Source of the DNA: a virus | IMG/VR virus record: IMGVR_UViG_3300031576_000144 | Coordinates: 1 to 40,535 of that record | Strand: one strand, 5' to 3' | Length of the DNA: 40,535 nt | In this document: positions 3,329-29,187 of the stretch, in pieces | Position numbering within the stretch: the stretch's first letter is position 1 | Layout of the letters: the number at the start of each line of letters is the position of its first letter | Position numbers and translations under genes: made by a program | The notes under the pieces: model-generated | The model's database searches: none | What the model was told of the DNA's origin: nothing | What the model saw: the letters and a program-made list of their open reading frames with translations, nothing else

Positions 3329-4852
3329 TTAATCAGATTCAGTGCAGTCGCCGAAGCCTTCGCCCACAGAGTCGCCTTCCGCTTCTCTGTGATGCTGCTC
3401 CTTCTCCGTGCCGAACGTGAAGCCGCTATCGCCTTCCGCGATGGCCGCCTTGCGTCCTTCCAGGAACAACCCGATCGCGTGATCGATCTGCTCCTTGTTC
3501 TTCGGGTCCTTGATCAGGGCCCGGATCTTCTTCGTAGCGTCGTTCGGGAGCTTGGACTCTCCGAGCTTCTGGTCGAGGTAGGTCTCCAGCTCGCTCTTCT
3601 TGCCCTTGCTCTCCAGAGCGTGGATCCGACCCGAGAGCTTGAGGATCTCGGCGTCCTTCTCGGCGAGCTGGGACTCCACGGTATTCGCCCCGGAGCTCTC
3701 CTTCTTGCCCTTGCCGAACGGAGGAGCCTGCGCTTCTTCCGTCTCCTCGGCTTCGGACTCCGACTCGCCCTCGGCCTCCTTCTTAGCCTGGGCCATCTTC
3801 TTGCCAGCCTTGACCATGGCGGCGGCGCACTTGTAGGCTTCCTCGCCCTTCACGCCTTCGGCCTGGAGCGCCTCGTACGCTTCCATAGCGGCGGTCATGT
3901 CGGCCTCACCGCTCTCGGTGTTCTCCTCGTCGCCCCCGCCCATGTGCTTCTGGAGCTCCTTCTTGATCAGCTCCTTATCCTTCTCGGCGTCGTCGTGTTC
4001 ACCGTCGTCCTCGTGGCTCTCGGACTCGCGGACCTTGCCCTTGCCGTTCTTGCCTGCTGTCTTGCCCATTGCAGATGCCTCCCTTTCGAGGATGGTCAGA
4101 AGTTTCCCGCCCGCCCCTGCCTCGGTGACCAGGTCGCAGCTCACCGCTTCGACGATCGCCGTACAGACGCGAATGGTTTCGATCCCTATTCCCGCGGCGG
4201 CATCCAGCTTGCCGATCGCGGACGCGGGAACTTGGTACTGCGACTTGAACTCCTCCACGGACATCTCGTTCGCGTCGCCGGAAGCATTGATCGAGAGCCC
4301 CACCAGGTCCTGCTCTGGGTGTCCCTTCTGGAAGGCCACGGCCGCGAGCATGAGCTGGGACGCCCAGTTGAATGCCTCACCTGGGAGGATGCAGACGTCG
4401 CCGGCGAGCTGGCCCTGCCCTTCGGAGCCCTCCTCGAAGGAGACGTTCTCGAAGTACCCCAGGATATCGCGCACGCTGCGCTCGGGCCGGGTCTGCTCCT
4501 CGTCCATGGCCGGGTGATCGGCGTAGATCTTCTTGCCCTCGAAGATCCCCGCGCACCCCTCGAGGCACTGACGCGTGTAGTAGAACCGGTCGCCCAGGTT
4601 GCCTAAGCCTTCCTGGATCAGGATGCAGCGGAAGCGGCGGCCGGCAGGGTCAAGCCCCCCGGCGGCTTCTATGAAGCGCGGGCGGATCCGCCAGGCCCCT
4701 GGAGTGGACACGCGCGCGGCTTCCTTCGGCTTCGCGCGCTGAACGGGCGCCTGGGTCGACGTGCCATCCGCCTGCTTCGCCTTCTTCTTGGGGCGACGAG
4801 GGGGGGCAGACGGGACTAGACCTGCGTCTTGGAAGATCTTAGCGAGTCCCAT
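3329..4852 (-). CDS. Putative scaffolding protein, possibly with an N-terminal prohead-protease-like domain
   Basis: 507 aa. Globular N-terminal half, then a long acidic/Lys-rich coiled-coil-like region (EEAEGESESEAEETEE...). Lies between the portal and capsid genes. Confidence 0.5.
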   Translation of the reverse strand: MGLAKIFQDAGLVPSAPPRRPKKKAKQADGTSTQAPVQRAKPKEAARVSTPGAWRIRPRFIEAAGGLDPAGRRFRCILIQEGLGNLGDRFYYTRQCLEGCAGIFEGKKIYADHPAMDEEQTRPERSVRDILGYFENVSFEEGSEGQGQLAGDVCILPGEAFNWASQLMLAAVAFQKGHPEQDLVGLSINASGDANEMSVEEFKSQYQVPASAIGKLDAAAGIGIETIRVCTAIVEAVSCDLVTEAGAGGKLLTILEREASAMGKTAGKNGKGKVRESESHEDDGEHDDAEKDKELIKKELQKHMGGGDEENTESGEADMTAAMEAYEALQAEGVKGEEAYKCAAAMVKAGKKMAQAKKEAEGESESEAEETEEAQAPPFGKGKKESSGANTVESQLAEKDAEILKLSGRIHALESKGKKSELETYLDQKLGESKLPNDATKKIRALIKDPKNKEQIDHAIGLFLEGRKAAIAEGDSGFTFGTEKEQHHREAEGDSVGEGFGDCTESD

Positions 4853-5201
4853 CTCTGACCTTGAAGTGAGTCCGCACGATGCACTTCCCGTTGCCCTGTG
4901 GGATGATCTGCGGCTTGATCTCGAGCTGGTCGAGCCGGTATCCCTGGTTGTTCGCGATCCTCTCGACGTCCTCCAGGCTCCTTGCCTTATAGCCGTCGAT
5001 GTAAAACTCCTCCCGCTGGATCAGGTCTCGAAGCCCCCTGATCTGACTGCCCCGCTCTACCGAGTCGAACAGTCTGGTCGGACTCTCTCTGTAACGCTCA
5101 GGGCGTTTCACGAATTCGTCAAACGTGGGCAGGCCGAACCGGTTCGGGTCGGCGTAGATGTCCTCGAGCGTGAGCTCCGGTTGCTGCTCAGAGCTGTCCA
5201 T
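4839..5201 (-). CDS. Hypothetical protein (head module)
   Basis: The track ORF extends to 5255. ATG 5201 (MDSSEQQPELT...) has GAAGGTG 5 nt upstream and overlaps the portal gene end by only 14 nt. Confidence 0.6.
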   Translation of the reverse strand: MDSSEQQPELTLEDIYADPNRFGLPTFDEFVKRPERYRESPTRLFDSVERGSQIRGLRDLIQREEFYIDGYKARSLEDVERIANNQGYRLDQLEIKPQIIPQGNGKCIVRTHFKVRDGTR

Positions 5202-6975
5202 CGTGCACCTTCTGGGCGACGCGGTCCTCGCCATCAAGGGTGTTCCCGTCGTCACCGCCGGCGACAGGGGGGGCAGGCACTTTCGCCAGAGTCGCGGGGC
5301 TCGAGAGCGGGTTGCTCGGAAGCCCGGCGCTCTTCGGCTTCTCGGCAGCGATATGAGCCTGCTCCTGCTTATAGTCGTAACTGGTGCGCTGAAGCTCCTT
5401 CGCCACTCCCGTCGACATGTGCTCGTGTGAGATCGCCCCGCACTCCTCGGCTAGGATCAGGTCTTGGATCTTCTTGGATCGGTCCTGACTCATGAGCTCG
5501 GGGAAGGTGATCTCGCACTCCGCATCGGGCATCCCGAATCGGTCCATGACCATGCCCCAGAGGTTCTGAAGCAGGCGCTCGACCTTCATCTGGCGCGCCT
5601 CCCACTTCTTCGTCACTGGCTCGGTGCCCACGATCGCGCTCGCCTTCGTCTGCCCCCCGGAGAGGTGCATCCCGAAGTAGGAGATCGGAACCCCGACGCC
5701 GGCAGCGATCATCGACATGCACCACTCGAACGCCAGACCATGAGCTCCCTGGCCAGCGGGGGCGGAGAGGAACTCGCGCTTGACGGCCTTCGTGTGGACG
5801 AACTCGGAGCCCGCCTCGCGGATCGTTCCGGCGGTCTGCTCATCGTTCACGTACTGATCGAGGTCCGCCTGGCTCCCTTCGATCGTCGTGTCGATCGCCC
5901 AGGCCGCCTGCTTCTGCTGACCGATGATCGAGTAGTTCACCGAGTCGCGCAGGCGCTTCAGGTACCCGAGCACCGGGAAGAGATCGGACCGGCCACGCTT
6001 CTCGTTGCTCACGGTGTTCACCTTGAGGTGGAGCATCTGAGCCGCGGGGATCTGCTGCATGATGAACTTCAGCGAGGGCACGTACTCGCCGTTCTTCTCG
6101 CCGGTGTACATCTGGTACTGGGTGGGCGCGACCCACTGGTAGTAGAGCACCCGGGTGATGTCCTCGGGGAATGTCACGATCTCCCAGATGGCCGACGGGT
6201 CCACGAGCCGCACCCGAGGGAGCAGGCCGTGCGGGATGTTCTTCGGCAGGACGTTGTAGACGATCTTCGACTGGAGGTCGGGCAGCTTCCAGAGCATCGA
6301 CTCGCCGTAGATCGCGAGCTCAATACACATCCAGTCCATCAGCTCGGCCAGGTTGTTCGCGTCCTCGAAGGCGCGCCAGATCGAGAGAGCCTTCTTGTCT
6401 TCGGAGTCGACCCGGTACCCGCGGCCCAGCACGAAGTCGCGCGTGGCGTTCACGATGAACCGGGCGATCGGGTCGTGGTGGTATGCGTGGAAGCAGGTGG
6501 CGAACTGGGCCAGCGCATCCTGCAGGTAGAGCTGCTTGAAGAATGCCCCCCCGAGAAGCGGGATGAAGTCGTGCCCGACCAGGTTCGAGGTGCCGGCACC
6601 GCCGCAGTCGAGGTCCCATCCGAAGGGATCACCCTGTTCGAGGAAGCGGAACTTGCGCTGGGTTGCCTGGCGGGTCTGCTCCAGGAACTGAGCTCGGTTC
6701 AGCCTGACGAGCCGGCGCGTCTGCTCGCGTGGGTTGACGGCCATGACTCGCGCGTCGATCTGGGTCTTCGCACTCTTCCCCTCGGCCCGCAGGGACTCGA
6801 TCAGCTCGGCCACGTTTCGAGCCGTCAGGGCGTTGCCGGGGTTCGCGCGCTTCTTCCAGTCTGAGCTGACCTCGTACTTCTTGAGATCCAGCTCTATATT
6901 CGAACCCAGGAGAGCTCGCCGGCGAGCAGCGACTAGTCGCTCTGTCGGCGATCCCTGCCCATCTGGTTCAGCCAC
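5188..6975 (-). CDS. Portal protein
   Basis: 595 aa, in the head module between the MuF-like gene and the scaffold/protease-like gene. Size and composition are portal-like (for example ...NEKRGRSDLFPVLGYLKRL...). The start is GTG. Confidence 0.75.
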   Translation of the reverse strand: MAEPDGQGSPTERLVAARRRALLGSNIELDLKKYEVSSDWKKRANPGNALTARNVAELIESLRAEGKSAKTQIDARVMAVNPREQTRRLVRLNRAQFLEQTRQATQRKFRFLEQGDPFGWDLDCGGAGTSNLVGHDFIPLLGGAFFKQLYLQDALAQFATCFHAYHHDPIARFIVNATRDFVLGRGYRVDSEDKKALSIWRAFEDANNLAELMDWMCIELAIYGESMLWKLPDLQSKIVYNVLPKNIPHGLLPRVRLVDPSAIWEIVTFPEDITRVLYYQWVAPTQYQMYTGEKNGEYVPSLKFIMQQIPAAQMLHLKVNTVSNEKRGRSDLFPVLGYLKRLRDSVNYSIIGQQKQAAWAIDTTIEGSQADLDQYVNDEQTAGTIREAGSEFVHTKAVKREFLSAPAGQGAHGLAFEWCMSMIAAGVGVPISYFGMHLSGGQTKASAIVGTEPVTKKWEARQMKVERLLQNLWGMVMDRFGMPDAECEITFPELMSQDRSKKIQDLILAEECGAISHEHMSTGVAKELQRTSYDYKQEQAHIAAEKPKSAGLPSNPLSSPATLAKVPAPPVAGGDDGNTLDGEDRVAQKVHDGQL

Positions 6976-8210
6976 TCGTCGAAGTCTCCGGGGGGTTCGC
7001 TCTGGTCATCGCTGAGCTGGTCCTTTGAGACCGGAGCAGGAACGCACCGGCAGTTGAAGTGGGCCGGTGGCACGATAGCGTCGCATTCATCTCCGGCATG
7101 GTCAGCTTCGAGTTCAGCCTCGATCTCCGAAGTGGTCAACCCGTCTCGCCATACGCAACATTCATCGGTCCGGTCGTCGAGGATGGCGACCCACACGAAC
7201 TCGTCGATGCCGTTATCGTTGGCCGCCTGCACCTGGCCTGATCGGACGCGGTTCACAAAGTCTTGAGTCATCTGCTGCTCGAGCTCCCAGCCGTACATCT
7301 CCTCGAGCTCGGGGTCGCCCACGTCGACATCGAACACGTTCTTCGCGCTCCGATCGATGGGGATGTGCTTCGTCTTATAGTCGGCGACCAGGTCCCCCCA
7401 GGTCTCCTCGTCCACGAACCCCGTAGCGAAGGTCCGAGAGCCCAGCTTCGCCACCTGGGTGATCTCGACACCATCCTCCTCGTCGTCCTCCGGATCCCAT
7501 GGGGATCGCGCTTCTGTCACCCGCTTGAGGGTTCGGCCCTTGCTGGGTAGCGGTCGGGTGCTTGGGAACTTCTTCGAGATGCGCTTGAGGCAGTCAGCCA
7601 TGGGGGAGTTCATCGCGCGTGAGAGCTCCACGGCGTTCATGATCTCCCGGCGCATCCGGTTGAAGGCGAGCGCGATCCGGTCCGGGAGTGATTCTCCTCC
7701 ATCGAGAGCAGGGACTTGATCAAGATCGATCTGCTCCAGTTTCGCAGGCCGCCCCAGCGCGCGGCCGATCGCCTCCACCTCCCCCGCGTAGGCGAGGAGC
7801 TGGGACTTCTGCCCGAGGTCTACCCACACCCCCAGGATCTGCCCCCCGGAGTGGGTGAAGACCCGCTCGATCTGAGCCTCGATATCGTGGAGGATCCGCT
7901 TGCTATGCAGGACAAAAGCTGTTCCTGCGGAGAGGTGGCTGTACCGCAGATGCACGATCTCGAGCACCCGGATCAGGGCGTGCCGGAGGATCTCCGAGCT
8001 CCGCTTCTGAGCCACCCTGAGCAGATGCTCAAGCGCCTGGTCCCGCTGGTGAATGAAGTTGCGGTAGCGTTTTGACTGATTCAGCGCCATGCCGCGGGGG
8101 GGCTTGAAACCCTCACGGACCAGCCCGATACTTGAACTGTCATCGGGTATCCTTCCATGAGCGCCCCGGGGGCGAGTGCCTCCGGGGTTTTTACTTGTAG
8201 CCGACGCCAC
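6933..8210 (-). CDS. Minor head protein, Mu F / SPP1 gp7-like head morphogenesis protein
   Basis: The C-terminal motif ILDDRTDECCVWRDG...VPPAHFNCRCVP matches the Mu F-family signature (DxRT...PPxHxNCRC). The GTG start at 8210 is uncertain. ATG 8090 (MALNQSKRY...) is an alternative. Confidence 0.75.
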   Translation of the reverse strand: MASATSKNPGGTRPRGAHGRIPDDSSSIGLVREGFKPPRGMALNQSKRYRNFIHQRDQALEHLLRVAQKRSSEILRHALIRVLEIVHLRYSHLSAGTAFVLHSKRILHDIEAQIERVFTHSGGQILGVWVDLGQKSQLLAYAGEVEAIGRALGRPAKLEQIDLDQVPALDGGESLPDRIALAFNRMRREIMNAVELSRAMNSPMADCLKRISKKFPSTRPLPSKGRTLKRVTEARSPWDPEDDEEDGVEITQVAKLGSRTFATGFVDEETWGDLVADYKTKHIPIDRSAKNVFDVDVGDPELEEMYGWELEQQMTQDFVNRVRSGQVQAANDNGIDEFVWVAILDDRTDECCVWRDGLTTSEIEAELEADHAGDECDAIVPPAHFNCRCVPAPVSKDQLSDDQSEPPGDFDEWLNQMGRDRRQSD

Positions 8211-8409
8211 TCGCGCGATCCTTCCGCACTTGACCGATCATCTCCATCGCCTCGTTCACGGTCCATATCGAGACCTTGCCCTTGCCGTTGATCGCTTCAT
8301 TGCAGACGATGAGCACTCCTCGCTTGGCCTTCTTGTACATAACGAAGATCGGCAGAGTGAAGATGGTCGAACCCAGTAGGAATGATGCGATACATGCAAC
8401 CAGGGTCAC
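8191..8409 (-). CDS. Small membrane protein (72 aa)
   Basis: GTG start overlaps the stop of the fibre-like gene (GTGA). N-terminal hydrophobic helix LVACIASFLLGSTIFTLPIFVMY followed by a basic patch. Confidence 0.6.
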   Translation of the reverse strand: MTLVACIASFLLGSTIFTLPIFVMYKKAKRGVLIVCNEAINGKGKVSIWTVNEAMEMIGQVRKDRASGVGYK

Positions 8410-10724
8410 GACGCCAGCTTCGAGATGGCGATGAACACGCGATCCGTAGTCGCGCTAATCGTGGGAGTCCCGGCCGTGCTTTTGAGCTGTAACCGAATTG
8501 TGTCGCCGGAAGTTACAGACACCAGGTCACTCCCATGAGCGATTTCTGAAGCTGCTACCCCGGTCGTTCGATTGACAAACTCAGATTGCACCGTGCCATT
8601 CTTTTGAATTTGAGCGGCAACCGAGGACCCCGCGCCGAAGACCCCGTCAACTTCCACCAAGAAAAACACATTATAGTATCCGGTGGAAGGCACTGTGAAG
8701 GTACCCGCCGACATTGCACTATTGGTGTCAAAATCCGCCGTAGTCCAGGAGACAGTCGCGTAAGTGCTACTGATCGACGTTGCGCTACCATGATATCGAG
8801 CCCCGATGAGCGTCGGCGTGGGGGCACTCTGGTAGGTCGGGTCGGCGGCCGAGCCATTGCTCGTGAGCACTTGCCCAGAAGTCCCAGCCCCGGTAGATGT
8901 CATCGCGTTGGTTGCGCTCGCGATCACGACTCCTTGATTCGTCTGCCCCGAGATGGTCGTGTTTCCAGTCGCCGTGCCCACGAAACTAGACGCGGTCATG
9001 GTTGAAGTAGAAGTGACCGCACCGAAGAAGCCCGTACTCAGGTCTTGAGCGATCGACATCGCGGTAGCGGGTGTCACGCTCCCGTCTGGGGTCACCAGGA
9101 AGCTCAGTCTCCCAGGCATGTCGTTTGACCCAGGAGTGCCGTCAACCGTCGAAATAATTCGCGCTGTATTTTCGTAGTCCACTCCGTCATAGCCGAAGAA
9201 GTCAATTTGGCCAGAAGTGTCCCCGCTCGAAACAATCGTCGGGGCGGCAAAAGTCCCGCGAGATTTCGCAAACTGAAGTTTGCCGCTCTGGGTATTGGTT
9301 TGATGACGGATGACTCTGAACCCGCCTTGGTTTCCGTCGTTGTCATCGCTCACCGAATAGCTGGCGTAGTTCGCGGACCCTGAAACGGTTATCGGGTTAT
9401 CAGTCGGTGTAGTCCCCGCACCGAAGCGTAGCGTGTTACCCGACGCTGTCACGTTGAATTGACCAGTTGAATTCATCGACCCCGCTGCGGTGAGAGCTAC
9501 ACGGCTTGTAGCGTTTTGCTGAAAATCAAAAAGATTTCCGGTGAAACCCAAAGTCGCGTTGACGCCGAGTTCCGTACCGCTCGTACTCCACGCGGTTGAA
9601 GTCGCGCCGGACGGCTCGATCAGAAGGAAAGGTTTAGTCGTCGTCGAGGTGCCCCCAGTAAACGGGGCTCCGAAAAAATAGAGTGACGGAGTAGACGCCG
9701 CGCCTGGAGCCAATGTCCAAAACGGAACAGATGAAGCGACAAGGGTCGGAGTCATGGCGAATTTAGTAGCGCCATTCAGTTGAAAGTCGAAAAGATACCC
9801 GGTGAACCCGGAAGCGGCATTGACCCCTAGCGCGGTTCCGCTTGTGTTCCATCCTGTTGATGTCGTCCCAGTAGGCTCGATCAGCACATGAGGTTTAGTG
9901 GTCGTGGAGGTCCCCCCAGAGAACCACGATCCGCTCATTAACTGCGCTGGAGACGAGACGGTACTTGAAATGCCGGATAGTACCTGTCCGAAGAATTCAG
10001 AGATTTTACTACTATGCACCCGAAGAGCGATGACCGGGTCGAGAGATCCAGAGGCAGTCACTCTTAAGTTGATCCGTCCAGGCATACTGGTAGGGCTTGG
10101 AGTCCCGTCCGCTTCGGCACCGATGCTGGCAGCCGCCTCGAAACTCGTGCCCGTGTACCCGTTGTAAAAAGTAGTACCAAGGCCATTACCACTGGAGACA
10201 GCGAGAGGTGCTGCGTTGGTCCCCCTGGCCCTCGCTAGCATGATGATCGGATCAAACCCCGACGTAGAGTAGCTCTTCGCGAGGAGAGGAGCCTGATTGG
10301 TTCCAAGGTTATCGCTGGTTGAGAAACTTCCGAATAGAGTGAATGGGCCACCCGAGCCAGGAACACCGATCGTTATAGAATTATCCGTTGCGTTAGTCCC
10401 AGTGCTGAATCTGGCCGCACCGATGGCACCGTCGTTCTGAATTGTGCCGTTGAACTTAGCCCCCCTCCATCGGAATGGACCCGTGAGCGTCCCCAGATCG
10501 AACGCAGAGTCAGTCCCTGGGTTGATCGACGCGCTCGCAGCAGTAGATGCGATGTTGTTCAGCGTCGTCGTGGCTCCAGGAGAGAAACTCCCGGAAGTAA
10601 CACAGGTCGTATCAGGGAAACAGATTGCTGGAGTGAGAAGCTGAGCTCCGCTACCTCCCCAGATGATCGGCGGACCTGCGTGCGCGAGGGATGAGATGAA
10701 CAGGATCGGGAGGAAGAGATTCAT
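8406..10724 (-). CDS. Secreted tail-fibre-like protein with internal repeats and a C1q/TNF-like C-terminal domain
   Basis: True start taken as ATG 10724 (SD GTGAGG upstream). N-terminus MNLFLPILFISSLAHA|G looks like a Sec signal peptide. Fibre-type repeats (sRGTxAAPxxVSSGD...MPGRL, GGTSTTTKPxLIEP). The C-terminus (TFTVPSTGYYNVFF...SGDTIRLQL) is C1q-like. Confidence 0.65.
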   Translation of the reverse strand: MNLFLPILFISSLAHAGPPIIWGGSGAQLLTPAICFPDTTCVTSGSFSPGATTTLNNIASTAASASINPGTDSAFDLGTLTGPFRWRGAKFNGTIQNDGAIGAARFSTGTNATDNSITIGVPGSGGPFTLFGSFSTSDNLGTNQAPLLAKSYSTSGFDPIIMLARARGTNAAPLAVSSGNGLGTTFYNGYTGTSFEAAASIGAEADGTPSPTSMPGRINLRVTASGSLDPVIALRVHSSKISEFFGQVLSGISSTVSSPAQLMSGSWFSGGTSTTTKPHVLIEPTGTTSTGWNTSGTALGVNAASGFTGYLFDFQLNGATKFAMTPTLVASSVPFWTLAPGAASTPSLYFFGAPFTGGTSTTTKPFLLIEPSGATSTAWSTSGTELGVNATLGFTGNLFDFQQNATSRVALTAAGSMNSTGQFNVTASGNTLRFGAGTTPTDNPITVSGSANYASYSVSDDNDGNQGGFRVIRHQTNTQSGKLQFAKSRGTFAAPTIVSSGDTSGQIDFFGYDGVDYENTARIISTVDGTPGSNDMPGRLSFLVTPDGSVTPATAMSIAQDLSTGFFGAVTSTSTMTASSFVGTATGNTTISGQTNQGVVIASATNAMTSTGAGTSGQVLTSNGSAADPTYQSAPTPTLIGARYHGSATSISSTYATVSWTTADFDTNSAMSAGTFTVPSTGYYNVFFLVEVDGVFGAGSSVAAQIQKNGTVQSEFVNRTTGVAASEIAHGSDLVSVTSGDTIRLQLKSTAGTPTISATTDRVFIAISKLAS

Positions 10725-10732
10725 CGGATGCC

Positions 10733-11125
10733 TCACTGGTAGAAGTTGATATCGAGCTCGCCCGTGCTGGCCGTGCCAGAGATCGATCGGATGGAGACGC
10801 GAGCACCGCTGGGGACTCGGATCGGCACCTTGCCGTTCCCCCCGGGGATGATCTGAAATTGAGTGACCTCGGAACCCGAGGCTCCGAAGCCGATCTTCAG
10901 CGTCTGCCCGCTCGAGTCGAAGACCTCGATCTCGCTCGCGCTCTGGGGCATGGCCGAGACGAGCTGCACCCAGGCGGCCGTGGTGACGTTCGTGCTCGAG
11001 TAGACGTTCCTCACGGTGAGGATCGAGTACTTGCCGACGTCGCCCGAGCTTCCGGCGGCGAGGGTCTGGCGAGGGGTGGAGACACAGGCGGCGATCAGAG
11101 CGATCGCCAGGAGAAGGTTGCGCAT
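10733..11125 (-). CDS. Putative lipoprotein (130 aa)
   Basis: ATG 11125 has AAAGGAG 9 nt upstream. MRNLLLAIALIAAC has a lipobox (IAAC). The rest is a beta-rich Ser/Gly/Thr domain. The upstream 34 codons of the track ORF look non-coding. Confidence 0.6.
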   Translation of the reverse strand: MRNLLLAIALIAACVSTPRQTLAAGSSGDVGKYSILTVRNVYSSTNVTTAAWVQLVSAMPQSASEIEVFDSSGQTLKIGFGASGSEVTQFQIIPGGNGKVPIRVPSGARVSIRSISGTASTGELDINFYQ

Positions 11126-11269
11126 GGCGGGTGGACTCCTTTGACTTGATCCTACACAGCGATCTGCATTCGTCGAGCCCAAGGACGGGCGACGACTTGG
11201 GGCGCCGCCCGTCCTCCACCACCACAAGGAGGTGGCTCAAGGATCAGGCAGATCGGAGGAGCGGTCAAG

Positions 11270-12601
11270 TCAGCGCCGGATCACCCGGAGCCTGCCGACG
11301 TTCCCGACGGGGGTGATCGGGGTGAAGACGTGGATGCCGTACCCCACCGCGTCCGACCCGTGGGTGCGTTTGGGGTCCTTCTTCTTCTCGATCTCCCCGC
11401 TCATCCCCTTCCGCCAGCTCACCTTATCGTGGTCCTTCTTGAGCTCAGGGCTCCGCTTGGGGTTGAACCAGAACCGGACGGACCCGTCAGCCGACTTCAG
11501 CACGGCGTTGTAGGCGTTGACCCGGTCCTTCACGAAGGGGTTCGCCTCGGGCTTCTTCACGATGAAGGTGATACCCGCCTCGCTCAGGGCTCGGGTCACC
11601 AGGGAGTAGTCGGTCTCGCCCGCGGCCGAGCTCCGCCGGCCCGTGCCCGTGGCGTCACCGGTCAGGACGACCTGGGGGTTCGCCTTCGTGGGGAAGCCCT
11701 TGAGCCGCTCGACGAGCTCCTTCGCCTGCGCCTCCGTGTGGGTGTCCTCCACGCAGATCTCGTCGAAGATCCACCAGCTCTCGAGGTTCGTCTGCCCGAG
11801 CTCCCAGACCATGGGGTTCACGTTGAAGTCCATCATCACCACGATCGGGAGGGCGGGCGAGTAGAGCTTGCCCGGAGCGAACGGGCAGTCCTCGCGGAAG
11901 TTGTGAGCCCCCGCGCTGACGTACACCTTGCCGGCGAACATGTCGCGGAACTGAGCCTCGATCTCCTGGGCGAAGTAGGCCTCGGTGTACTTCGTGCGGA
12001 GACGGTTCACCTCGGCCATCGGGAAGGCTGGGTTGCACCAGGAGGGGGCGTTGATAAACTTAGACTCGGGATCATCCCGCATCTCCTCGGCCAGGTCATA
12101 GCAGTGATCGAACCCGTTTGGGGTCGTGAGGAACTTCGCGAACCCGTTCGTGGTCGAGAGCATCGGGCGGCAGATGTCCCATACCGAGGGCTTCATGTTG
12201 CGGTACTCGTCGAGGTAGATCCCGTCGAGGGTCTCCATGCGGAGGTTCTCCTCGAGCTCGGCCGAGAGGAAGAAGAAGGTCGATCCAGTGGTGAATGTGA
12301 AGTAGAGGTCCGACTTCGAGGCGTCTGCGACGTACTCGGAGCAGCTCGATAGAGCGCGCTTCACCCTTCGCCAGCCTATCTTGCACTGTCGGTAGGTAGG
12401 CAGGAGGTACCAGTAGGTCCGATGCTCGTGCTCCCAGGCGTTCTTCACCACGTCGTTCAGGCCGAAGGAGGTCTTCCCTGACTGCCGTCCCCAGAGGGAG
12501 AACAGAAATCGGCCGCGCCAGTCGTGCGCCTCCCGCTGTACCGCGTGCGGGTTGTACAGCTCCAGGGTATGGGTCTGGATCTGCCTGGCGGGTTCGTTCA
12601 C
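11270..12601 (-). CDS. terL: Terminase large subunit
   Basis: Walker A WGRQSGKTS, Walker B-like LDGIYLDE, C-terminal nuclease-like MMDFNVNP / LTGDATG / HGSDAVGY. 443 aa. Confidence 0.9.
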   Translation of the reverse strand: MNEPARQIQTHTLELYNPHAVQREAHDWRGRFLFSLWGRQSGKTSFGLNDVVKNAWEHEHRTYWYLLPTYRQCKIGWRRVKRALSSCSEYVADASKSDLYFTFTTGSTFFFLSAELEENLRMETLDGIYLDEYRNMKPSVWDICRPMLSTTNGFAKFLTTPNGFDHCYDLAEEMRDDPESKFINAPSWCNPAFPMAEVNRLRTKYTEAYFAQEIEAQFRDMFAGKVYVSAGAHNFREDCPFAPGKLYSPALPIVVMMDFNVNPMVWELGQTNLESWWIFDEICVEDTHTEAQAKELVERLKGFPTKANPQVVLTGDATGTGRRSSAAGETDYSLVTRALSEAGITFIVKKPEANPFVKDRVNAYNAVLKSADGSVRFWFNPKRSPELKKDHDKVSWRKGMSGEIEKKKDPKRTHGSDAVGYGIHVFTPITPVGNVGRLRVIRR

Positions 12602-13887
12602 CGCTTGCGCTTCGCCTCTCCGATCAGCTCGGCCTTCTTGCCCGAGTACTTCCGCCAGCGGGCGATGATCACGTCACAGTAGTTGGGGTCGATCTCCATC
12701 CCGAAGCAACGTACCTTCTCCTTCTCTGCGGCGATGAAGTTAGATCCTGACCCAGCGAACGGCTCGTATAGCACCTCTCCGGCCTTCAGATGGTTTCGGA
12801 TCGGTATGGCAAAGAGCTCCACCGGCTTTTGGGTGGGGTGGATCTTGTCATTCTCCCGGCCCACCTCCCAAACGGTCGACTGGTTCCGCTCCCCATAGAA
12901 TTGCGGCTCTTCCCCCTGCATCCACCCCATGAGGCAGAGTTCGTGGCGCCAGTGGTACTGGCCCCGACCGAACACAAAGCTGGGCTTCACCCAGATGATC
13001 TGGCGATGGAATAAGATACCGGCGGCGGCGGCGGCGGCGGCGGCGGCTTGCGAGAAGTATGCCTGCATCTTCATCGCGTGCCACATGTAGAACGCGAACC
13101 CCTTGCCCATGTGGGCCAACGACGTGGTGATCGCCTTGAGGATGAATGCACGAAGAGCCTCGTCCTGCAGCTCGTCGTTCTCGATCTTTTTGTACCCTTT
13201 CGCCTGACGCTTCTCGTTGGCTACCTCGACGTGGTTGATCCCATATGGTGGATCCGACGACCAGAGCATGGCCTTGTGATCGCCCATGAGCCGCCCCACC
13301 TGGGCCGCATCCGTCGAGTCCCCGCACATAAGTCGGTGGTCCCCGAGCTTGAATATCTGGCCGGGCTTCGTGCGCGCCTTCTCTCGCACGATCGGCACGT
13401 CATCCTCGGCCGCCCCCTTCGCGCTGAACATCACGTCCTTGAAGTACCCCCGACCGAAGTGCTCCGTGTCGATCCCAGGCACGTCGAAGGACTGGGCGAA
13501 GTCCTGGTAGCCGATCCCAGCGTCATGCATGAACTCGTACAGAGTCTCCTCCGCCGCGTGGCCGAACTGGGAGACGTTCGAGAGGAGGATCTTCTTCGCG
13601 TGCTTCGTGTCCCGGGCCTCGACGAAGACGACGGGGAGCGGCGGGATCGTTCGCTTCTTCGCCAGGCGCTTGAGGACGCGGATCCGCTGGTGCCCGTCGA
13701 GATTCCAGTGCTTCCCATTCGGGTCCTTCCAGACGTGGATCGGAGCCGTGATCCCATTATCGAGGATCAGCTCCTCGAGGCGCTTCGCGTTCTCATCACT
13801 AAGCGCCTTCAGGTTCCCCTGTAGCGCATGGATCTTGCTCATCGGGAGCGTCGCCGCCCCGGTACAGCTCACCTTGATCGCCTTCAC
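12598..13887 (-). CDS. ParB-like nuclease domain fused to a beta-class N6/N4 DNA methyltransferase
   Basis: N-terminal ParB-type motif (NLDGHQRIRVL), then the catalytic motif SSDPPYGI, then the AdoMet motif YEPFAGSGSNF near the C-terminus (motif IV before I). An internal Ala9 tract is present. Confidence 0.85.
   Translation of the reverse strand: MKAIKVSCTGAATLPMSKIHALQGNLKALSDENAKRLEELILDNGITAPIHVWKDPNGKHWNLDGHQRIRVLKRLAKKRTIPPLPVVFVEARDTKHAKKILLSNVSQFGHAAEETLYEFMHDAGIGYQDFAQSFDVPGIDTEHFGRGYFKDVMFSAKGAAEDDVPIVREKARTKPGQIFKLGDHRLMCGDSTDAAQVGRLMGDHKAMLWSSDPPYGINHVEVANEKRQAKGYKKIENDELQDEALRAFILKAITTSLAHMGKGFAFYMWHAMKMQAYFSQAAAAAAAAAGILFHRQIIWVKPSFVFGRGQYHWRHELCLMGWMQGEEPQFYGERNQSTVWEVGRENDKIHPTQKPVELFAIPIRNHLKAGEVLYEPFAGSGSNFIAAEKEKVRCFGMEIDPNYCDVIIARWRKYSGKKAELIGEAKRKR
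13021..13047. repeat. (GGC)9 trinucleotide repeat encoding Ala9 inside the methyltransferase gene
   Basis: Nine perfect GGC units read directly. On the minus strand they are GCC x9 = AAAAAAAAA in ...YFSQAAAAAAAAAGILFH... Confidence 0.95.
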
Positions 13888-15689: not shown

Positions 15690-15964
15690 GTCTGAGCGTC
15701 CTTCTCGAACTGATGGATCGCAGTCATCAGGACCGACTCGCGAAACTGAAGGACCGATGCCTTCACGCTGAGCATCTTCTCAGCCAGCCGCTTCAACCCC
15801 CGGATGTTCCCCATCGCGTCTCGGTAGTTCGTGGGATCGAGGATCGGACCAGTGGTCTCTACGGTGGAGATCCTACCGAGGTACCCCTCGAGGTCCAGCT
15901 TATCGATCTGCACCGCGAGCTTGATCATCTTCATCTGGGTGGCCTTGTACTGCTCGTCGGTCAT
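15686..15964 (-). CDS. Hypothetical protein (92 aa)
   Basis: Protein-like ORF coupled to rusA through an ATGA-type overlap. Confidence 0.7.
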   Translation of the reverse strand: MTDEQYKATQMKMIKLAVQIDKLDLEGYLGRISTVETTGPILDPTNYRDAMGNIRGLKRLAEKMLSVKASVLQFRESVLMTAIHQFEKDAQT

Positions 15965-15998
15965 TATACCGCTCCTCGGTCATTACATTGTTCGTCGG

Positions 15999-16697
15999 TC
16001 ATTGGGTCGCCTCCACCAGGCCGAGCTCCTGCACCGCCATCCAAAGCATGAGCCTCTCCTCCTTCCGTCGCCCTCCCGCTCGGAGCACCTGGGCCGCGGT
16101 GACGAAGGTCTTCGCGATCATCGCTGACTGCTCGAGCGGATCCACCTCACCCTTCTTCTTGCGCGCCTTGCGTACGGTCGGCGGCTTCACCGCATCCTTC
16201 GGGTTGCCCTCTCCCCCATCGATGAACTTCCGAAGCGCGGCGCGGCTGATGATCATCTTTTGCCCGTCCCTCGAGGTCGGCAGTCCGGCCCTCACCCAGT
16301 TCCGGATCGTCTGCGCTGACTTGCCCGCCTCCTCGGCGGCCTCCTGAATCGTCATTCCTATCTCTTCGACCACGTCTCTCTCCTCCATCTCGATCTCCTC
16401 CTGCGGTTCTGCTATCGGGCGGGGGTCACTCAGACCCTCCCTGAAACCCTCTACGCTGCCCGCCACGGGCTTCTGCTCAAGCCTGTCGGCGATCTCCTGG
16501 CGGCTGGGGGATCGGTTGCTCAGGCTAGCCAGGGGGGCGCAGGCGGCCGAGCAGTAGCCCATCCCCGGTAACACGTCCTTCCCGCATCCGATCCGCCGGC
16601 AGGTCATGCCCCCCCTGTTTACGCTCAGTGCCATAACAGCAGGATCGCTCCAATCACCACGACCGATGCGAGCCCTGCCCCGACGTTCCATCTCCAC
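15999..16697 (-). CDS. DNA-binding protein with an excisionase/MerR-type HTH and an N-terminal Cys cluster
   Basis: MTIQEAAEEAGKSAQTIRNWVRAGLP is an HTH of the excisionase/MerR type. N-terminal CRRIGCG...CSAAC. The start may be ATG 16607, which is preceded by AGGGGGG. Confidence 0.6.
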   Translation of the reverse strand: MEMERRGRARIGRGDWSDPAVMALSVNRGGMTCRRIGCGKDVLPGMGYCSAACAPLASLSNRSPSRQEIADRLEQKPVAGSVEGFREGLSDPRPIAEPQEEIEMEERDVVEEIGMTIQEAAEEAGKSAQTIRNWVRAGLPTSRDGQKMIISRAALRKFIDGGEGNPKDAVKPPTVRKARKKKGEVDPLEQSAMIAKTFVTAAQVLRAGGRRKEERLMLWMAVQELGLVEATQ

Positions 16698-17574: not shown

Positions 17575-18167
17575 GCGCCCTTCTCCGCCCGGGCCGTCTC
17601 GATCGCCCGGTTCATGGCCTGCATCTCCGCGGCATCCCCGCCCAGGTCCGGGTGCAGCTGCTTCGCCCGCATCTTGTAGGCGAACTCGATCGCATCCAGC
17701 GGCCACTCCTGAGAGCACCCCAGGACGGTCCACCAGTCCGGATCTGGCTCGACGTGGCCGGCTGGCGGGGGCAGAGCGGTGAAGCCCTGGAAGACCCGGT
17801 CGAGCATGTCGCTCGCGCCCCACCGATCCAGCCCGCGCATCGCCTCCACCGTGAGCCCGATCGCCCGGAGGTTATCCTCGATCCTCTCCCACCGGTCGCA
17901 GGCGATCGACAGCGGCCGGCCCTTGCGGTGGAAGTAAACCGCCACACCCGGGTCCTCGATCCTCCGCTCGGCCGCGTACGGCTGGCCGTCCTTTCGGATC
18001 GGCTGGTTGGTTGAGATGATCACGTTCGTGACTCGCATAAGTCGGAGCTCGTTCTGCACCGACCAGAGTCCGCCCGCCCAGGTCGACTTGAACTTCGCCC
18101 GGACTCGCCCGAGAGGCTTCGTCCTTTTGAACGCTACCGGCCAGTCCAGCGGATACGCTTCAGGCAT
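17571..18167 (-). CDS. J-domain (DnaJ-like) protein with an uncharacterised N-terminal domain
   Basis: ATG 18167 overlaps the upstream stop (ATGA). The C-terminus WWTVLGCSQEWPLDAIEFAYKMRAKQLHPDLGGD carries the HPD tripeptide in J-domain context. Confidence 0.7.
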   Translation of the reverse strand: MPEAYPLDWPVAFKRTKPLGRVRAKFKSTWAGGLWSVQNELRLMRVTNVIISTNQPIRKDGQPYAAERRIEDPGVAVYFHRKGRPLSIACDRWERIEDNLRAIGLTVEAMRGLDRWGASDMLDRVFQGFTALPPPAGHVEPDPDWWTVLGCSQEWPLDAIEFAYKMRAKQLHPDLGGDAAEMQAMNRAIETARAEKGA

Positions 18168-18658
18168 CAGTACGCCCCGCTCAGATTCTTGCCGTCGACT
18201 TCTGCCGGAGCCTCGGGCTTGAGCCACTTGCGCTTTAGCTTCTTGCCGGCCAGGGGGAGATCCGCCTGCCGCTCGGAGTCTTCCATCGCCCGCTCCTCGA
18301 CCATGAACCACTCGCCCTCGCGCTCGACATAGAAGCGGATCAGGTTCTGCTCGAAGACCTTCTGCATCACGCAGTCCACCAGCCTGAGCTCGGAGCCTGA
18401 CTTGATCTCGCCCAGGAGCCGGTCGCGGTCCTTCTGCACCCGGCGGATATTCGCGGCCGTGCCCTTCGCCTCCTCCTTCCAGCCCTCGATACTCTTCGCG
18501 CAGGTCGCCGCCTCCTGCGCCTTCTCGGCGATCTCCTTATCCGAGAGCGGGATCGTCAGCTCCTTCTGCAGGGCCACCCCCGTCGGCGCCTCCTTCATCA
18601 GCTTGAGCTTGCGCTCCTTGGGTGCCTTCGTCTTCGCTGCCTTCTTCGACTTGCTCAT
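18167..18658 (-). CDS. Hypothetical protein with a Lys-rich N-terminus (163 aa)
   Basis: ATG 18658 (MSKSKKAAKTKAPK...) is preceded by GAAAGGA. The upstream VTVTV part of the track ORF is a repeat-derived shadow. Confidence 0.65.
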   Translation of the reverse strand: MSKSKKAAKTKAPKERKLKLMKEAPTGVALQKELTIPLSDKEIAEKAQEAATCAKSIEGWKEEAKGTAANIRRVQKDRDRLLGEIKSGSELRLVDCVMQKVFEQNLIRFYVEREGEWFMVEERAMEDSERQADLPLAGKKLKRKWLKPEAPAEVDGKNLSGAY

Positions 18659-18677
18659 GCATTCCTTTCTGCTGTTC

Positions 18678-18941
18678 TCAGTCACCGTCACCGGAACCGT
18701 CACCGTCACCGGAACCGTCACCGGAACCGTCACCGGAACCGTCACCGTCACCGGAACCGTCACCGTCACCGTCACCAGAACCGTAACCGGAACCGTCACC
18801 GTAACCGGAACCGTCACCAGAACCGTAACCGGAGACGTAACCGTCACCGTAACCGGAACCGTCACCGTAACCGTAACCGGAACCGGAGACGTGCTGACTT
18901 TCCTCGCCGAGAGAACCGATCAGTCGCAGTGCTTCGCCCAT
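18678..18941 (-). CDS. Acidic (Gly-X)n dipeptide-repeat protein (87 aa)
   Basis: ATG 18941 has GAGGAGG 5 nt upstream. A 17-aa leader is followed by about 35 G-[D/S/Y] dipeptides encoded by the hexamer repeat. Confidence 0.55.
   Translation of the reverse strand: MGEALRLIGSLGEESQHVSGSGYGYGDGSGYGDGYVSGYGSGDGSGYGDGSGYGSGDGDGDGSGDGDGSGDGSGDGSGDGDGSGDGD
18681..18890. repeat. Tandem hexanucleotide repeat, 35 units (GTCACC / GGAACC / GTAACC variants)
   Basis: Parsed directly: 35 consecutive hexamers with the pattern NNNACC, using five variants. All three minus-strand frames stay open. Confidence 0.95.
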
Positions 18942-27712: not shown

Positions 27713-27931
27713 TTAGAACGTCTGCGCCGGGCAGGAGACCACGACCCGCGACAGGTCCTCCATGGCCATACACGCCTTGCCGGCCGCCTGCTCATCGGTG
27801 AGGGTCTCGACCAGGTCGCCGGTCTTATGCTCGAGCTTCCCCGCGGGGTTCACCCGGTAGAACTTCACCGGCACCTTTGGCTCGGAGGCGCACGCGCTAA
27901 GCAGCAGGAGGAACGGGAGGAGTCGGTTCAT
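27713..27931 (-). CDS. Outer-membrane lipoprotein, o-spanin candidate
   Basis: ATG 27931 has GGAGAG 8 nt upstream. MNRLLPFLLLLSAC has a lipobox. 72 aa with additional Cys residues. The start lies inside the 3' end of the preceding gene (overlapped spanin architecture). Confidence 0.65.
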   Translation of the reverse strand: MNRLLPFLLLLSACASEPKVPVKFYRVNPAGKLEHKTGDLVETLTDEQAAGKACMAMEDLSRVVVSCPAQTF

Positions 27932-28148
27932 CAGTCTTCTCTCCGAGGTAGAGGGCTTCAAGCTTCGCGGAGTCTCCGGTCTCCTTGAACTCCTTCATGG
28001 CGACCCTGAGATCCGCCGCTCGCTGCGCCTTGTTCTTCATCCCCTTGATCTCGTGGACCAGTTGGATGATCTGCCAGACGATCGCGATCCCGTCCTTCAG
28101 CCCCTTCAGCGCAACGGGGATAGCGGCGAGCCAGAGCAGCGGGTTCAT
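27897..28148 (-). CDS. i-spanin candidate (83 aa)
   Basis: Hydrophobic N-terminus (LLWLAAIPVAL), a charged helical middle and a Pro-rich C-terminus. Overlaps the lipoprotein gene start by 35 nt. Confidence 0.45.
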   Translation of the reverse strand: MNPLLWLAAIPVALKGLKDGIAIVWQIIQLVHEIKGMKNKAQRAADLRVAMKEFKETGDSAKLEALYLGEKTDEPTPPVPPAA

Positions 28149-28432
28149 GTGGCGGCGGGCTTCATGAGCTCCTCGGCCAGGTCGATCGACTTGTTCGACA
28201 GGGCCCGGATCACCGGGAACTTATCTTCCGCCGCGTCCGCCTGGAGCGTGGGCATATCCCTGATCACCGACGAGAGATCCCTGTACGCCTCGAGGACGAT
28301 CACGGGGATGTCGGTCCCTGGCTGGAAGCCGTCGGCCAGCGCCTTCCTCGTGGCCTTCACCAGGGCGACGAGCTTATCACCGACGTCCGCCGCTGCCTTC
28401 GATCCTTCCACCTTCAGATCGATCTTCTCCAT
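28145..28432 (-). CDS. Hypothetical protein in the lysis cassette (95 aa)
   Basis: Coupled ORF with no TM segment or recognisable motif. Confidence 0.6.
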   Translation of the reverse strand: MEKIDLKVEGSKAAADVGDKLVALVKATRKALADGFQPGTDIPVIVLEAYRDLSSVIRDMPTLQADAAEDKFPVIRALSNKSIDLAEELMKPAAT

Positions 28433-28442
28433 GACGCTCTCC

Positions 28443-28730
28443 TCAGAGGCTGGGTTGAAGGACGTCGGCCGGGCGCCTCGTGCCCTTGAGCTCGCGGATC
28501 CCTGCGTGGGCCGCGTCGACGTCTCTCTTGAGTTTCGGAAATTCCTCGGCCGCCTTGAGCACTGCCGTCATGCTGCCCTTGATCTCTGCGACATCCTTCG
28601 TCAGCTGCCCGAGCTTCCGGCCATCTCGCCTGGCCATCCGCCAGAGTCCACGCGCGATGAAGGCTCCGAGGAGCGCCACGTTTGAGGCGATGAGCTGCTT
28701 TAGTGGCTCGCTGGGGATCTCGATCTGCAC
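28443..28730 (-). CDS. Membrane protein, holin-like candidate (95 aa)
   Basis: Single TM segment LIASNVALLGAFIARGLW followed by a charged helical tail. Directly downstream of the endolysin-like gene. GTG start without a clear SD. Confidence 0.4.
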   Translation of the reverse strand: MQIEIPSEPLKQLIASNVALLGAFIARGLWRMARRDGRKLGQLTKDVAEIKGSMTAVLKAAEEFPKLKRDVDAAHAGIRELKGTRRPADVLQPSL

Positions 28731-28761
28731 GGTTCAAGCGTAGGGGTGGCCGGCGAAAGGG

Positions 28762-29187
28762 TCAACCCGGCAGGGTCTTCCACCGAGGATCCAGCTCGAA
28801 GTGATCGGCATCCCCGATTGACTTCCAGGTCGCTCCGCACCGAATCGGGTCACCGTCCTGCACAACCTCGACCGCGAGCATCTGGAAGAAGTCTGAGCTC
28901 CAGGATCCGGTTCCGTCGACGTTTTGAAGGAACAGGTCGAGGGCTTCGGCGCAAGGGCTCCCGTCCGCTGCCGTGCGGTTGTGCATGGAGTATGGCCAGT
29001 GCCGCTCGCTCTTCCCCTGGGCGACCGCCTTCTCCTGATCGGTTCTCCCCCGGAAGGACCAGGAGATATGAGCCGTGGTGTGGAAGGGCTTGACCTTCTC
29101 GCGGAACCACCGGGCGATCCTCGGATGCGCCTGCTTCAGCTTCTCCTCGCAACCCGGGCAGGCTGGTATCCCGTTGATGTGCATCAA
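28762..29187 (-). CDS. Endolysin candidate, M15-type zinc cell-wall peptidase
   Basis: YSMHNRTAADGSPCAEALDLF and GDADHFEL resemble the SxHxxGxAxD ... DxxHxE signature of L-Ala-D-Glu / VanY-like peptidases (for example the T5 endolysin). 141 aa. Confidence 0.55.
   Translation of the reverse strand: MMHINGIPACPGCEEKLKQAHPRIARWFREKVKPFHTTAHISWSFRGRTDQEKAVAQGKSERHWPYSMHNRTAADGSPCAEALDLFLQNVDGTGSWSSDFFQMLAVEVVQDGDPIRCGATWKSIGDADHFELDPRWKTLPG

Follow-up and report, generated by a model that had tools for sequence, protein, structure and literature searches.

The long tail fiber of phage T4 (gp34-37) is a two-part fiber with N-terminal docking, and morons, such as lambda lom and bor, are autonomous accessory genes that lie between conserved phage genes. 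In the T5-like phage DT57C, LtfA and LtfB form a branched fiber in which one fiber protein is docked N-terminally on another (PMC4728585). The mosaic adhesive trimer (MAT) fibers of Bdellovibrio bacteriovorus are exported, phage-tail-fiber-like trimers that act outside the cytoplasm and combine a signal peptide and a conserved N-proximal region with C-terminal tips that can be swapped (PMC10769870), and the gene for the T5 lipoprotein Llp lies next to the receptor-binding protein gene (PMC9586334). Here, we analyzed a three-gene cassette of an uncultured virus, IMG/VR record IMGVR_UViG_3300031576_000144, positions 1 to 40,535 (40,535 nucleotides [nt], hereafter the window). The cassette lies on the minus strand between the terminase gene terL and the MuF and portal genes and encodes a small jelly-roll protein (130 amino acids [aa], 10733-11125), a fiber-like protein (772 aa, 8406-10724), and a single-pass membrane protein (72 aa, 8191-8409); all of these elements are found where the original prediction, made by reading the DNA, had placed them. 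Judged from sequence comparisons, the small-protein and fiber genes represent a widespread, uncharacterized two-gene module of uncultured phages in its leader-bearing form.

An IMG/VR profile scan yielded 72 loci, from which open reading frame (ORF) and hidden Markov model analysis gave 60 nonredundant pairs; gene calls at these homologous loci (numbered with the prefix L) are greedy ORF calls. In the module, a jelly-roll gene is directly followed by a fiber gene whose (mature) N terminus carries the motif P-x-I-[FW]-x-G, and the window pair fits this layout, with the motif at fiber residues 19 to 24. On three unrelated contigs, the large protein likewise begins within ~15 nt after the homolog of the small protein and has a leader followed by the same motif (MKKFLSLILLIATTALA/GSPMIFKG, ...LFSSLAHA/GPYCGAPIIWG, and MRLLIAALFLVTGLAHA/GPPIIWAP; slashes mark predicted cleavage sites). 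Most upstream proteins of the family are 250 to 800 aa long, leaderless, and rich in LPLPTGAATEATL-type repeats, with the jelly-roll at the C terminus; the ~95-aa jelly-roll of the small protein is thus, in most phages, the C-terminal domain of a long leaderless protein of the structural module, and a gene for this domain is found just upstream of the P-x-I-[FW]-x-G fiber type throughout the family. The fiber N terminus, G-[SP]-P-x-I-[FW]-x-G, is probably conserved through docking onto the jelly-roll protein (the adaptor), a contact that we infer. As in the two-part and branched fibers of T4 and DT57C, the genes are adjacent, the N-terminal docking segment is conserved, the distal tips are swappable, and the leaderless majority of the module lies in structural gene clusters. 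Unlike those fibers, to which it has no sequence relation, the module has a ~95-aa TNF-like jelly-roll as docking partner, and about one-third of its members have predicted cleavable leaders for the general secretory (Sec) pathway, which are unreported for T4 and DT57C fibers in the literature found. At L013, the pair follows the genes for portal, scaffold, and major head protein; among 24 loci, the closest large gene on the upstream side is mostly one for a major head protein or for a protein resembling MuF, and in another group of loci it encodes a protein of ~1,000 aa, with a few matches to internal-virion or virion-structural PHROGs. Megablast and tblastn searches of 50,697 phage records found neither the small protein nor the gene pair, so that no cultured phage in this set carries the pair, and the small protein has no match in GTDB species genomes.

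Leaders were called by hydrophobicity, the -3/-1 rule, and comparison. In 35 of 40 leaderless fibers, the initiator Met lies exactly 3 residues before the motif Pro (M-G-S-P-x-I-F-x-G..K.L), and in the 19 leader-bearing fibers Ala is found at -5 and -3 and Gly at -2 relative to this Pro (A-x-A/G-[SP]-P-x-I-[WF]). A-x-A/G is therefore in register with Met1 of the leaderless fibers, and cleavage by signal peptidase I (SPase I) would yield the Gly that Met excision yields. Of the evidence at hand, this N-terminal register speaks most strongly for the leaders being real export signals that are cleaved. The window fiber begins MNLFLPILFISSLAHA/GPPIIWGG: its leader (10677-10724) has the hydrophobic (h) region LFLPILFISSL, with a Kyte-Doolittle 10-residue maximum above 2.2, and a predicted SPase I cut after A16 (A14-H15-A16/G17), where small neutral residues occupy -3 and -1. 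Behind it, 10602-10676 encodes the conserved mature N terminus G17-P-P-I-I-W-G-G and then a loop between Cys35 and Cys41, the only cysteines of the mature fiber. The Sec-type leader proposed for the 772-aa protein in the original prediction is thus placed in register with the N terminus of leaderless homologs.

The state of the partner protein and the cysteine content point in the same direction. A leader is present on the upstream protein in 12 of the 19 pairs with a fiber leader and in 1 of the 40 without (Fisher P = 5e-7), and the median length of the upstream protein is 153 aa in the former group versus 435 aa in the latter. Mature cysteine counts are even in 12 of 14 leader-bearing fibers versus 13 of 30 leaderless fibers (P = 0.01), which fits export because even counts are expected for disulfide-forming proteins; leader-bearing members also show close cysteine pairs. 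We considered that the proteins may not be exported at all, the hydrophobic N termini being start-codon artifacts or uncleaved segments of an ordinary fiber assembled in the cytoplasm. The N-terminal (n) region of the window fiber indeed lacks Lys and Arg when translation starts at the ATG at 10724, and the shaft has ordinary tail fibers as its homologs. An in-frame GTG at 10736, four codons upstream, would nevertheless give a charged n-region with Arg (MRHPMNLF...), and no downstream in-frame start occurs for more than 160 codons. Since, in addition, classical leaders are found on 19 independent fibers with A-x-A abutting the conserved N terminus, and since the partner-leader association, the cysteine parity, and the paired cysteines of leader-bearing members are left unexplained, nonexport is very improbable. 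Export of the fiber and its partner is, by contrast, well supported by these comparisons, and both would be exported and cleaved in the infected cell.

The small protein begins MRNLLLAIALIAAC and has, as predicted, its own Shine-Dalgarno sequence (AGGAG 10 nt 5' of the ATG). Its AlphaFold2 (AF2) model, built with 35 homologs, has a predicted local distance difference test (pLDDT) score of 92 and consists of a leader helix (residues 2 to 14) that a disordered linker joins to a jelly-roll of eight strands (residues ~34 to 130). The fold matches are weak and general and include TNF-like lectins, CBM36, Ena, C1q-like phage proteins, and parts of phage tail tips, and no match was found in Pfam, PHROG, NCBIfam, or PADLOC. 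The original prediction regarded the protein as a lipoprotein with the lipobox IAAC. The residues themselves are compatible with this: in M-R-N-LLLAIAL-I-A-A-C14, an h-region follows a brief charged n-region, and by eye IAAC14 fits the G+LPP pattern and the residue pattern of PROSITE PS51257, although Cys14 lies outside the range of 15 to 35 given by the PROSITE rule; in the o-spanin-like lipoprotein of the same phage, the Cys is likewise at position 14. As a family trait, however, lipidation was rejected. Cys14 is not conserved among 35 aligned homologs, which mostly have A-x-A type I sites at the aligned position; even homologs with 57 to 65% identity lack it and have type I sites instead, and nearly all of the 84 homologs, many of them on phage-like contigs of 35 to 58 kb, have classical type I leaders. 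Lipidation of the window protein is therefore regarded as possible, with a plausible lipobox; its leader would comprise residues 1 to 13 if IAAC14 is used and residues 1 to 23 if the type I site TLA/AG is used.

These features bear on an alternative in which the cassette is an envelope-targeted module and not a virion part: an outer membrane lipoprotein would anchor the exported fiber for receptor masking, exclusion, or debris protection, similar to Llp of T5 and Cor of T1/phi80. Such a role would suit leaders on both proteins, a lipobox-like IAAC14 matched in position by the Cys of the o-spanin-like lipoprotein, and an adaptor that has no virion-docking extension, but it is hard to reconcile with a lipobox Cys that is missing even from homologs with 57 to 65% identity and with the absence of any match to known exclusion or defense families in Pfam, PHROG, NCBIfam, or PADLOC. 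The cassette and the Llp/Cor systems have in common a small leader-bearing, possibly lipidated protein beside a receptor-binding-type gene and an accessory character. They differ in that no sequence or fold relation exists, the fiber of the cassette is itself predicted to be exported, the lipobox lacks conservation among homologs, and the jelly-roll of the small protein recurs as a domain of long leaderless structural proteins. The analogy with the Llp and receptor-binding protein genes of T5 was consequently abandoned, the small protein having a TNF-like jelly-roll fold instead.

The fiber gene (GAGG 6 nt 5' of the ATG) encodes a shaft whose central repeats match the tail fiber families PHROG 18345 and 9942 (E values of 2.6e-26 and 1.9e-21). 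Two modules are duplicated in the shaft (twice "...RG..AAP..SSG...MPGR" and twice "GGTSTTTKP..LIEP"), and these modules are common to hundreds of metagenomic fibers and, as tblastn matches show, to cyanophage tail fibers. The sole PDB sequence match, Bdellovibrio MAT fiber Bd2439 (8OL4; E value of 6e-4), also falls in a shaft module. The MAT fibers thus resemble the window fiber in a signal peptide and export, both predicted for the latter, in a conserved N-proximal part and swappable tips, and in weak shaft homology; they are, however, encoded by chromosomal genes of a predatory bacterium, have an N-terminal domain of ~130 aa instead of G-P-P-I-I-W, and have no jelly-roll partner gene, and the sequence match lies in a shaft module.

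The C-terminal tip (residues ~640 to 772; 8409-8807) is probably a C1q/TNF-like jelly-roll, as had been proposed. The fold search agrees with the proposal, since the top Foldseek matches of the tip model are nearly all BclA, C1QL, Cbln1, C1q, Caprin-2, and TNF ligands (E values of ~1e-4), whereas the profile and model scores are low: Pfam C1q (PF00386) aligns residues 671 to 764 with profile positions 34 to 122 of 127 at 21 bits (E value of 4e-4), below the 23.7-bit gathering cutoff, and the single-sequence AF2 model has a pLDDT of 56 and a predicted template modeling score of 0.60 (low confidence). No sequence homologs were found for the last ~130 residues, and PDB sequence searches were uninformative. 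A C-terminal jelly-roll tip on a fiber is also present in Bacillus BclA and in phage fiber tips of the "caprin-2 domain" or C1q-like type, from which the window tip differs in its Pfam score below gathering, its lack of sequence homologs, and the pLDDT of its model. No paralog of the fiber or its tip is encoded within the window, so that the idea of a decoy copied from the receptor-binding protein of this phage was rejected and the envelope-targeted module is left without a virion protein to mimic.

The folds also raise the possibility of a free complex released at lysis, a soluble lectin-like agent that binds debris or glycans on host surfaces and, for example, saturates the receptors on debris. 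C1q/TNF-like tips and TNF/CBM-like adaptors have folds commonly seen in proteins that bind glycans or ligands, the leaders of most family members are of the soluble type I, short Cys-rich members exist, and mixed pairs, in which a single partner has a leader, imply function after compartments merge. Release at lysis, however, needs no export, so that oxidative folding alone would have to explain the leader; moreover, the strictly adjacent genes and the conservation of the N-terminal docking motif point to an assembled structure, and experimental precedent was not found in the open-access literature. We regard a free complex as improbable.

Four related phages have a head module in common with the window (L002, L003, L004, and L099; identities of 36 to 40% for terL, 40% for MuF, and 48 to 53% for portal). 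MuF follows within ~45 nt after terL in all four and is followed by portal, and the 3-kb cassette is absent from each of them. Because terL adjoins MuF in these relatives, the cassette is an insertion, and the view that phages normally have nothing at this position holds among them. Like the cassette, the flanking genes are on the minus strand; they were assigned with Pfam and PHROGs as terL (11270-12601), MuF (6933 to ~8089; 385 aa as called), and portal (5188-6975). The 144-nt spacer between terL and the small gene contains a strong GC-rich hairpin that forms the upstream boundary of the cassette. The original prediction had given it 10-bp arms (11182-11191/11206-11215); the hairpin is present but longer, with 13-nt arms (11182-11194/11203-11215) that are 92% complementary, an 8-nt loop, and a ΔG of -35.6 kcal/mol (z of -3.5), and none of 200 shuffled sequences was equally stable. 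A second GC-rich stem-loop, which the original prediction had not noted (8163-8188; ΔG of -19.5 kcal/mol, z of -1.65) marks the downstream boundary within the ~100-nt spacer from the 72-aa gene to the start of MuF. A U-tract is absent from both. No promoter passed the scan; a weak 8/12 match (TCGACG-16 nt-TAGGAT) after the upstream hairpin was seen by eye only. The fiber gene is less GC-rich than its surroundings, as noted earlier for the whole cassette, with 56.0% GC and a third-codon-position GC fraction (GC3) of 0.60 overall and 0.53 to 0.70 along its full length, compared with 62 to 64% GC and GC3 values of 0.78 to 0.91 for the neighboring genes. This does not extend to the small gene, whose GC3 of 0.87 is neighbor-like.

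Within the cassette, 8 nt separate the small gene from the fiber ATG. If the GTG at 10736 is used instead, it overlaps the TGA of the small gene as GTGA, the same arrangement as at the junction between the fiber and the 72-aa gene, and all three genes would be translationally coupled. The 72-aa protein, whose GTG start overlaps the TGA stop of the fiber gene, has one N-terminal transmembrane (TM) segment followed by KKAKRG, in agreement with its earlier description as a GTGA-coupled membrane protein. Its lone distant homolog (38% identity) among 1.8 billion representatives lies in an unrelated context, and it is not similar to the small TM protein encoded by the relative L098; it was therefore rejected as a part of the conserved module and is, on present comparisons, an orphan outside it. 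The cassette resembles morons in its insertion, which separates genes that adjoin each other in relatives, in its flanking stem-loops and deviant composition, and in its predicted envelope-targeted products. It differs from them in lacking a convincing promoter of its own and a U-tract terminator and in comprising three coupled genes in late orientation, and no integrase was found in the window, which makes lysogenic expression of the cassette doubtful. We propose, with some reserve, that the cassette was acquired horizontally as a translationally coupled accessory-fiber module. The envelope-targeted alternative is favored by the same hairpin-flanked insertion, absent from 4/4 relatives, by the deviant GC3 of the fiber gene, and by the coupling of this gene to a membrane-protein gene, but a late operon in late orientation, with no promoter passing the scan and no integrase found, would be odd for an exclusion gene.

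The distribution of the leaders indicates how the two forms of the module are related. The window belongs to a subclade (window, L005, L052, L096, and L097) with the motif A/GPP[IV]IWG...LC...C, in which both genes have leaders throughout. Elsewhere, the leader state is interspersed: over 36 aa, the leader-bearing fibers of L007, L044, and L057 are 56 to 66% identical to leaderless fibers, whereas their identity to other leader-bearing fibers does not exceed 44%; leaders were thus gained repeatedly. In the T7-like late region of L035, genes for proteins of 560, 988, and 121 aa precede a jelly-roll gene (159 aa) and a leader-bearing fiber gene (639 aa), and holin-like, spanin-like, and amidase genes come next; this region is syntenic with those of L020, L023, and L036, whose fibers are leaderless. 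Genuine mixed pairs also exist, with a leader on the fiber alone in six cases and on the upstream protein alone in one (L019), which suggests that the partners do not meet until the compartments have merged. Because leaders recur on syntenic structural fibers and mixed pairs exist, the fiber may well do the same job with or without a leader, after the merging of the compartments or cell lysis, and both observations tell against an envelope-targeted function.

Several loci of the family show other arrangements. At L068, L071 to L073, L075, L078, and L079, the gene for a short jelly-roll protein, which may or may not have a leader, has no fiber gene after it; instead, the next gene overlaps it by 4 nt and encodes a protein of ~380 aa that carries the motif GMHFYPGVAEY and that we suspect to be of the head protease or scaffold type. 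Two tandem jelly-roll genes, encoding a leaderless protein of 109 to 117 aa and then a leader-bearing protein of 207 to 253 aa, lie upstream of a leader-bearing fiber gene at L008 (7664-8624), L009, L024, and L029, and at L008 an O-antigen-ligase-like multi-TM protein is encoded after the fiber. At L044 (4365-11536), the major head gene is followed by genes for five leader-bearing proteins (187, 179, 944, 529, and 183 aa), and at L060 (2489-10447) by genes for a 69-aa lipobox protein and for leader proteins of 635 and 1,392 aa.

A second fiber of the same phage has a leader as well. It is encoded outside the cassette on the minus strand (33037-35049; 670 aa; MKLIPLLLIFLGSHAQA/AGVVNGQPV), in a tail module that contains the genes for the tape measure protein (35808-37814) and a Dit-like protein (35046-35807), and it lies between the Dit-like gene and a gene for an 857-aa tail protein; its six cysteines are arranged in close pairs. 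The relative L098 has the same order of tape measure, Dit (48% identical), and fiber genes, but its fiber (3540-5585) begins MAINDGQPVDAAN (MAINDGQPV) and is leaderless. Over their first ~117 residues, the two fibers share 41% identity; residue 18 of the window protein aligns with Met1 of its syntenic ortholog, which begins at the position of the predicted cut. All homologs of the second fiber are leaderless and have only a generic shaft motif in common with it. The second fiber and its comparison with L098 imply that leaders grafted onto fibers in structural positions are a trait of this lineage. Between its fiber gene and a homolog of the window's 857-aa gene, L098 additionally encodes a 605-aa Cys-rich leader protein (MKKIFTGILIPLLLITNSYA/Q) and then an 80-aa TM protein (5570-7611).

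On this basis, we propose a pathway that begins with Sec-dependent export of both the small protein and the fiber. SPase I would then cut the fiber after AHA16 and expose G17-PPIIWGG, as leaderless relatives expose their N terminus by Met removal. In the periplasm, the Cys35-Cys41 loop would be oxidized and the fiber, with its C1q-like binding tip, would pair with the adaptor, which would be soluble or, if IAAC14 is used, lipid anchored. The site of action of the complex would lie beyond the cytoplasm, and the time would be lysis or later. Our preferred reading, held tentatively, is that of a Sec-routed accessory adsorption or adhesion fiber that is folded and oxidized in the periplasm and joins particles late via holin lesions; both this late joining and the contact between adaptor and fiber are parts of the model that we infer. 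T4 fibers and P22 tailspikes can be added to particles in vitro, which indicates that the last step of such an assembly can occur outside an intact cytoplasm. The role is most likely the same as that of the leaderless pairs, and a dedicated superinfection-exclusion device is less likely. More generally, some tailed phages of diderm hosts may route adsorption fibers and jelly-roll adaptors via Sec, with folding and disulfide formation in the periplasm, and may attach them to otherwise complete particles only at lysis, when holin lesions join the two compartments, as a periplasmic branch of virion assembly; such complexes could also mask or sequester receptors in the infected cell. This extension is doubtful.

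A number of observations weigh against the preferred reading. No precedent for a leader-bearing or periplasm-maturing tailed-phage fiber was found in the open-access literature, the leaderless pairs are taken as virion components from gene position alone, and joining of the fiber to particles after lysis is speculation. The adaptor of the cassette has no virion-docking extension and may be lipid anchored, features that fit the envelope better. The closest subclade relatives lie at module boundaries or among early/regulatory genes (after a Collar-type tail fiber in L096, among early/regulatory genes in L097, and after lysis genes in L005), and some "fibers" of the subclade are Cys-rich proteins of just 179 to 209 aa, more moron-like than structural. 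The subclade positions favor the envelope-targeted module, a serious rival that is nevertheless less likely in view of the repeated gain of leaders on syntenic structural fibers and the mixed pairs. A Sec-routed accessory fiber thus remains the reading that we prefer.

The window also provides some hints about the host. A probable lysis cassette on the minus strand (27713-29187) encodes an M15-like endolysin, small TM proteins, and the o-spanin-like lipoprotein. The M15-like peptidase is a 141-aa protein with the motifs SMHN...D...DADH and without a Pfam match; the o-spanin-like lipoprotein is encoded in an overlapping frame (82 aa, MNRLLPFLLLLSAC), and its Cys is at position 14 if the start is MNRLL. 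As this cassette points to a diderm host, the host is probably diderm. The only GTDB genome match to the portal profile is L099 (CAYZFQ010000015.1), a phage-sized contig of 38.7 kb that was binned in a metagenome-assembled genome (MAG) of an uncultured member of the Bacteriovoracaceae and whose portal is 53% identical to that of the window. It gives a weak hint at Bacteriovoracaceae as hosts of the phage group, at a GC content of 49% versus 62% for the window.

Some further features of the window lie outside the fiber genes. Upstream of terL, a ParB-like N terminus is fused to an N6/N4 DNA methyltransferase (12598-13887, minus strand), the gene for which lies between a terS-like gene and terL and contains a perfect (CGG)9 run at 13020-13047 that encodes poly-Ala; the methyltransferase, too, was confirmed with Pfam and PHROGs. 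A 12-nt unit, ACCGTAACCGGA, is repeated in tandem at 18684-18885 (~16 copies, 80% match) and codes for a (V/P)TV repeat at the N terminus of the ORF at 18167-18865, and a 19-nt direct repeat, TACTGCTCGTCGGTCATTA, occurs in 2.9 copies at 15948-16003, at the junction of two early-region genes.

The analysis defines a widespread and uncharacterized module composed of a jelly-roll adaptor and a G-S-P-x-I-F fiber, and the N-terminal register of this module offers a clear and cheap experimental prediction. Tailed phages are taken to produce their virion fibers in the cytoplasm and to attach them there, whereas about one-third of the fibers of this family, and also the syntenic tail-module fiber, have predicted Sec leaders. 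If these proteins are exported, one option is that structural fibers have repeatedly been recruited as exported envelope effectors, which would be a general way for receptor-binding proteins to become exclusion or adhesion factors. The other option is that particles are completed with fibers matured in the periplasm, which would be a new assembly route; such a periplasmic route, if true, would have consequences for lysis timing, fiber stability, and engineering.

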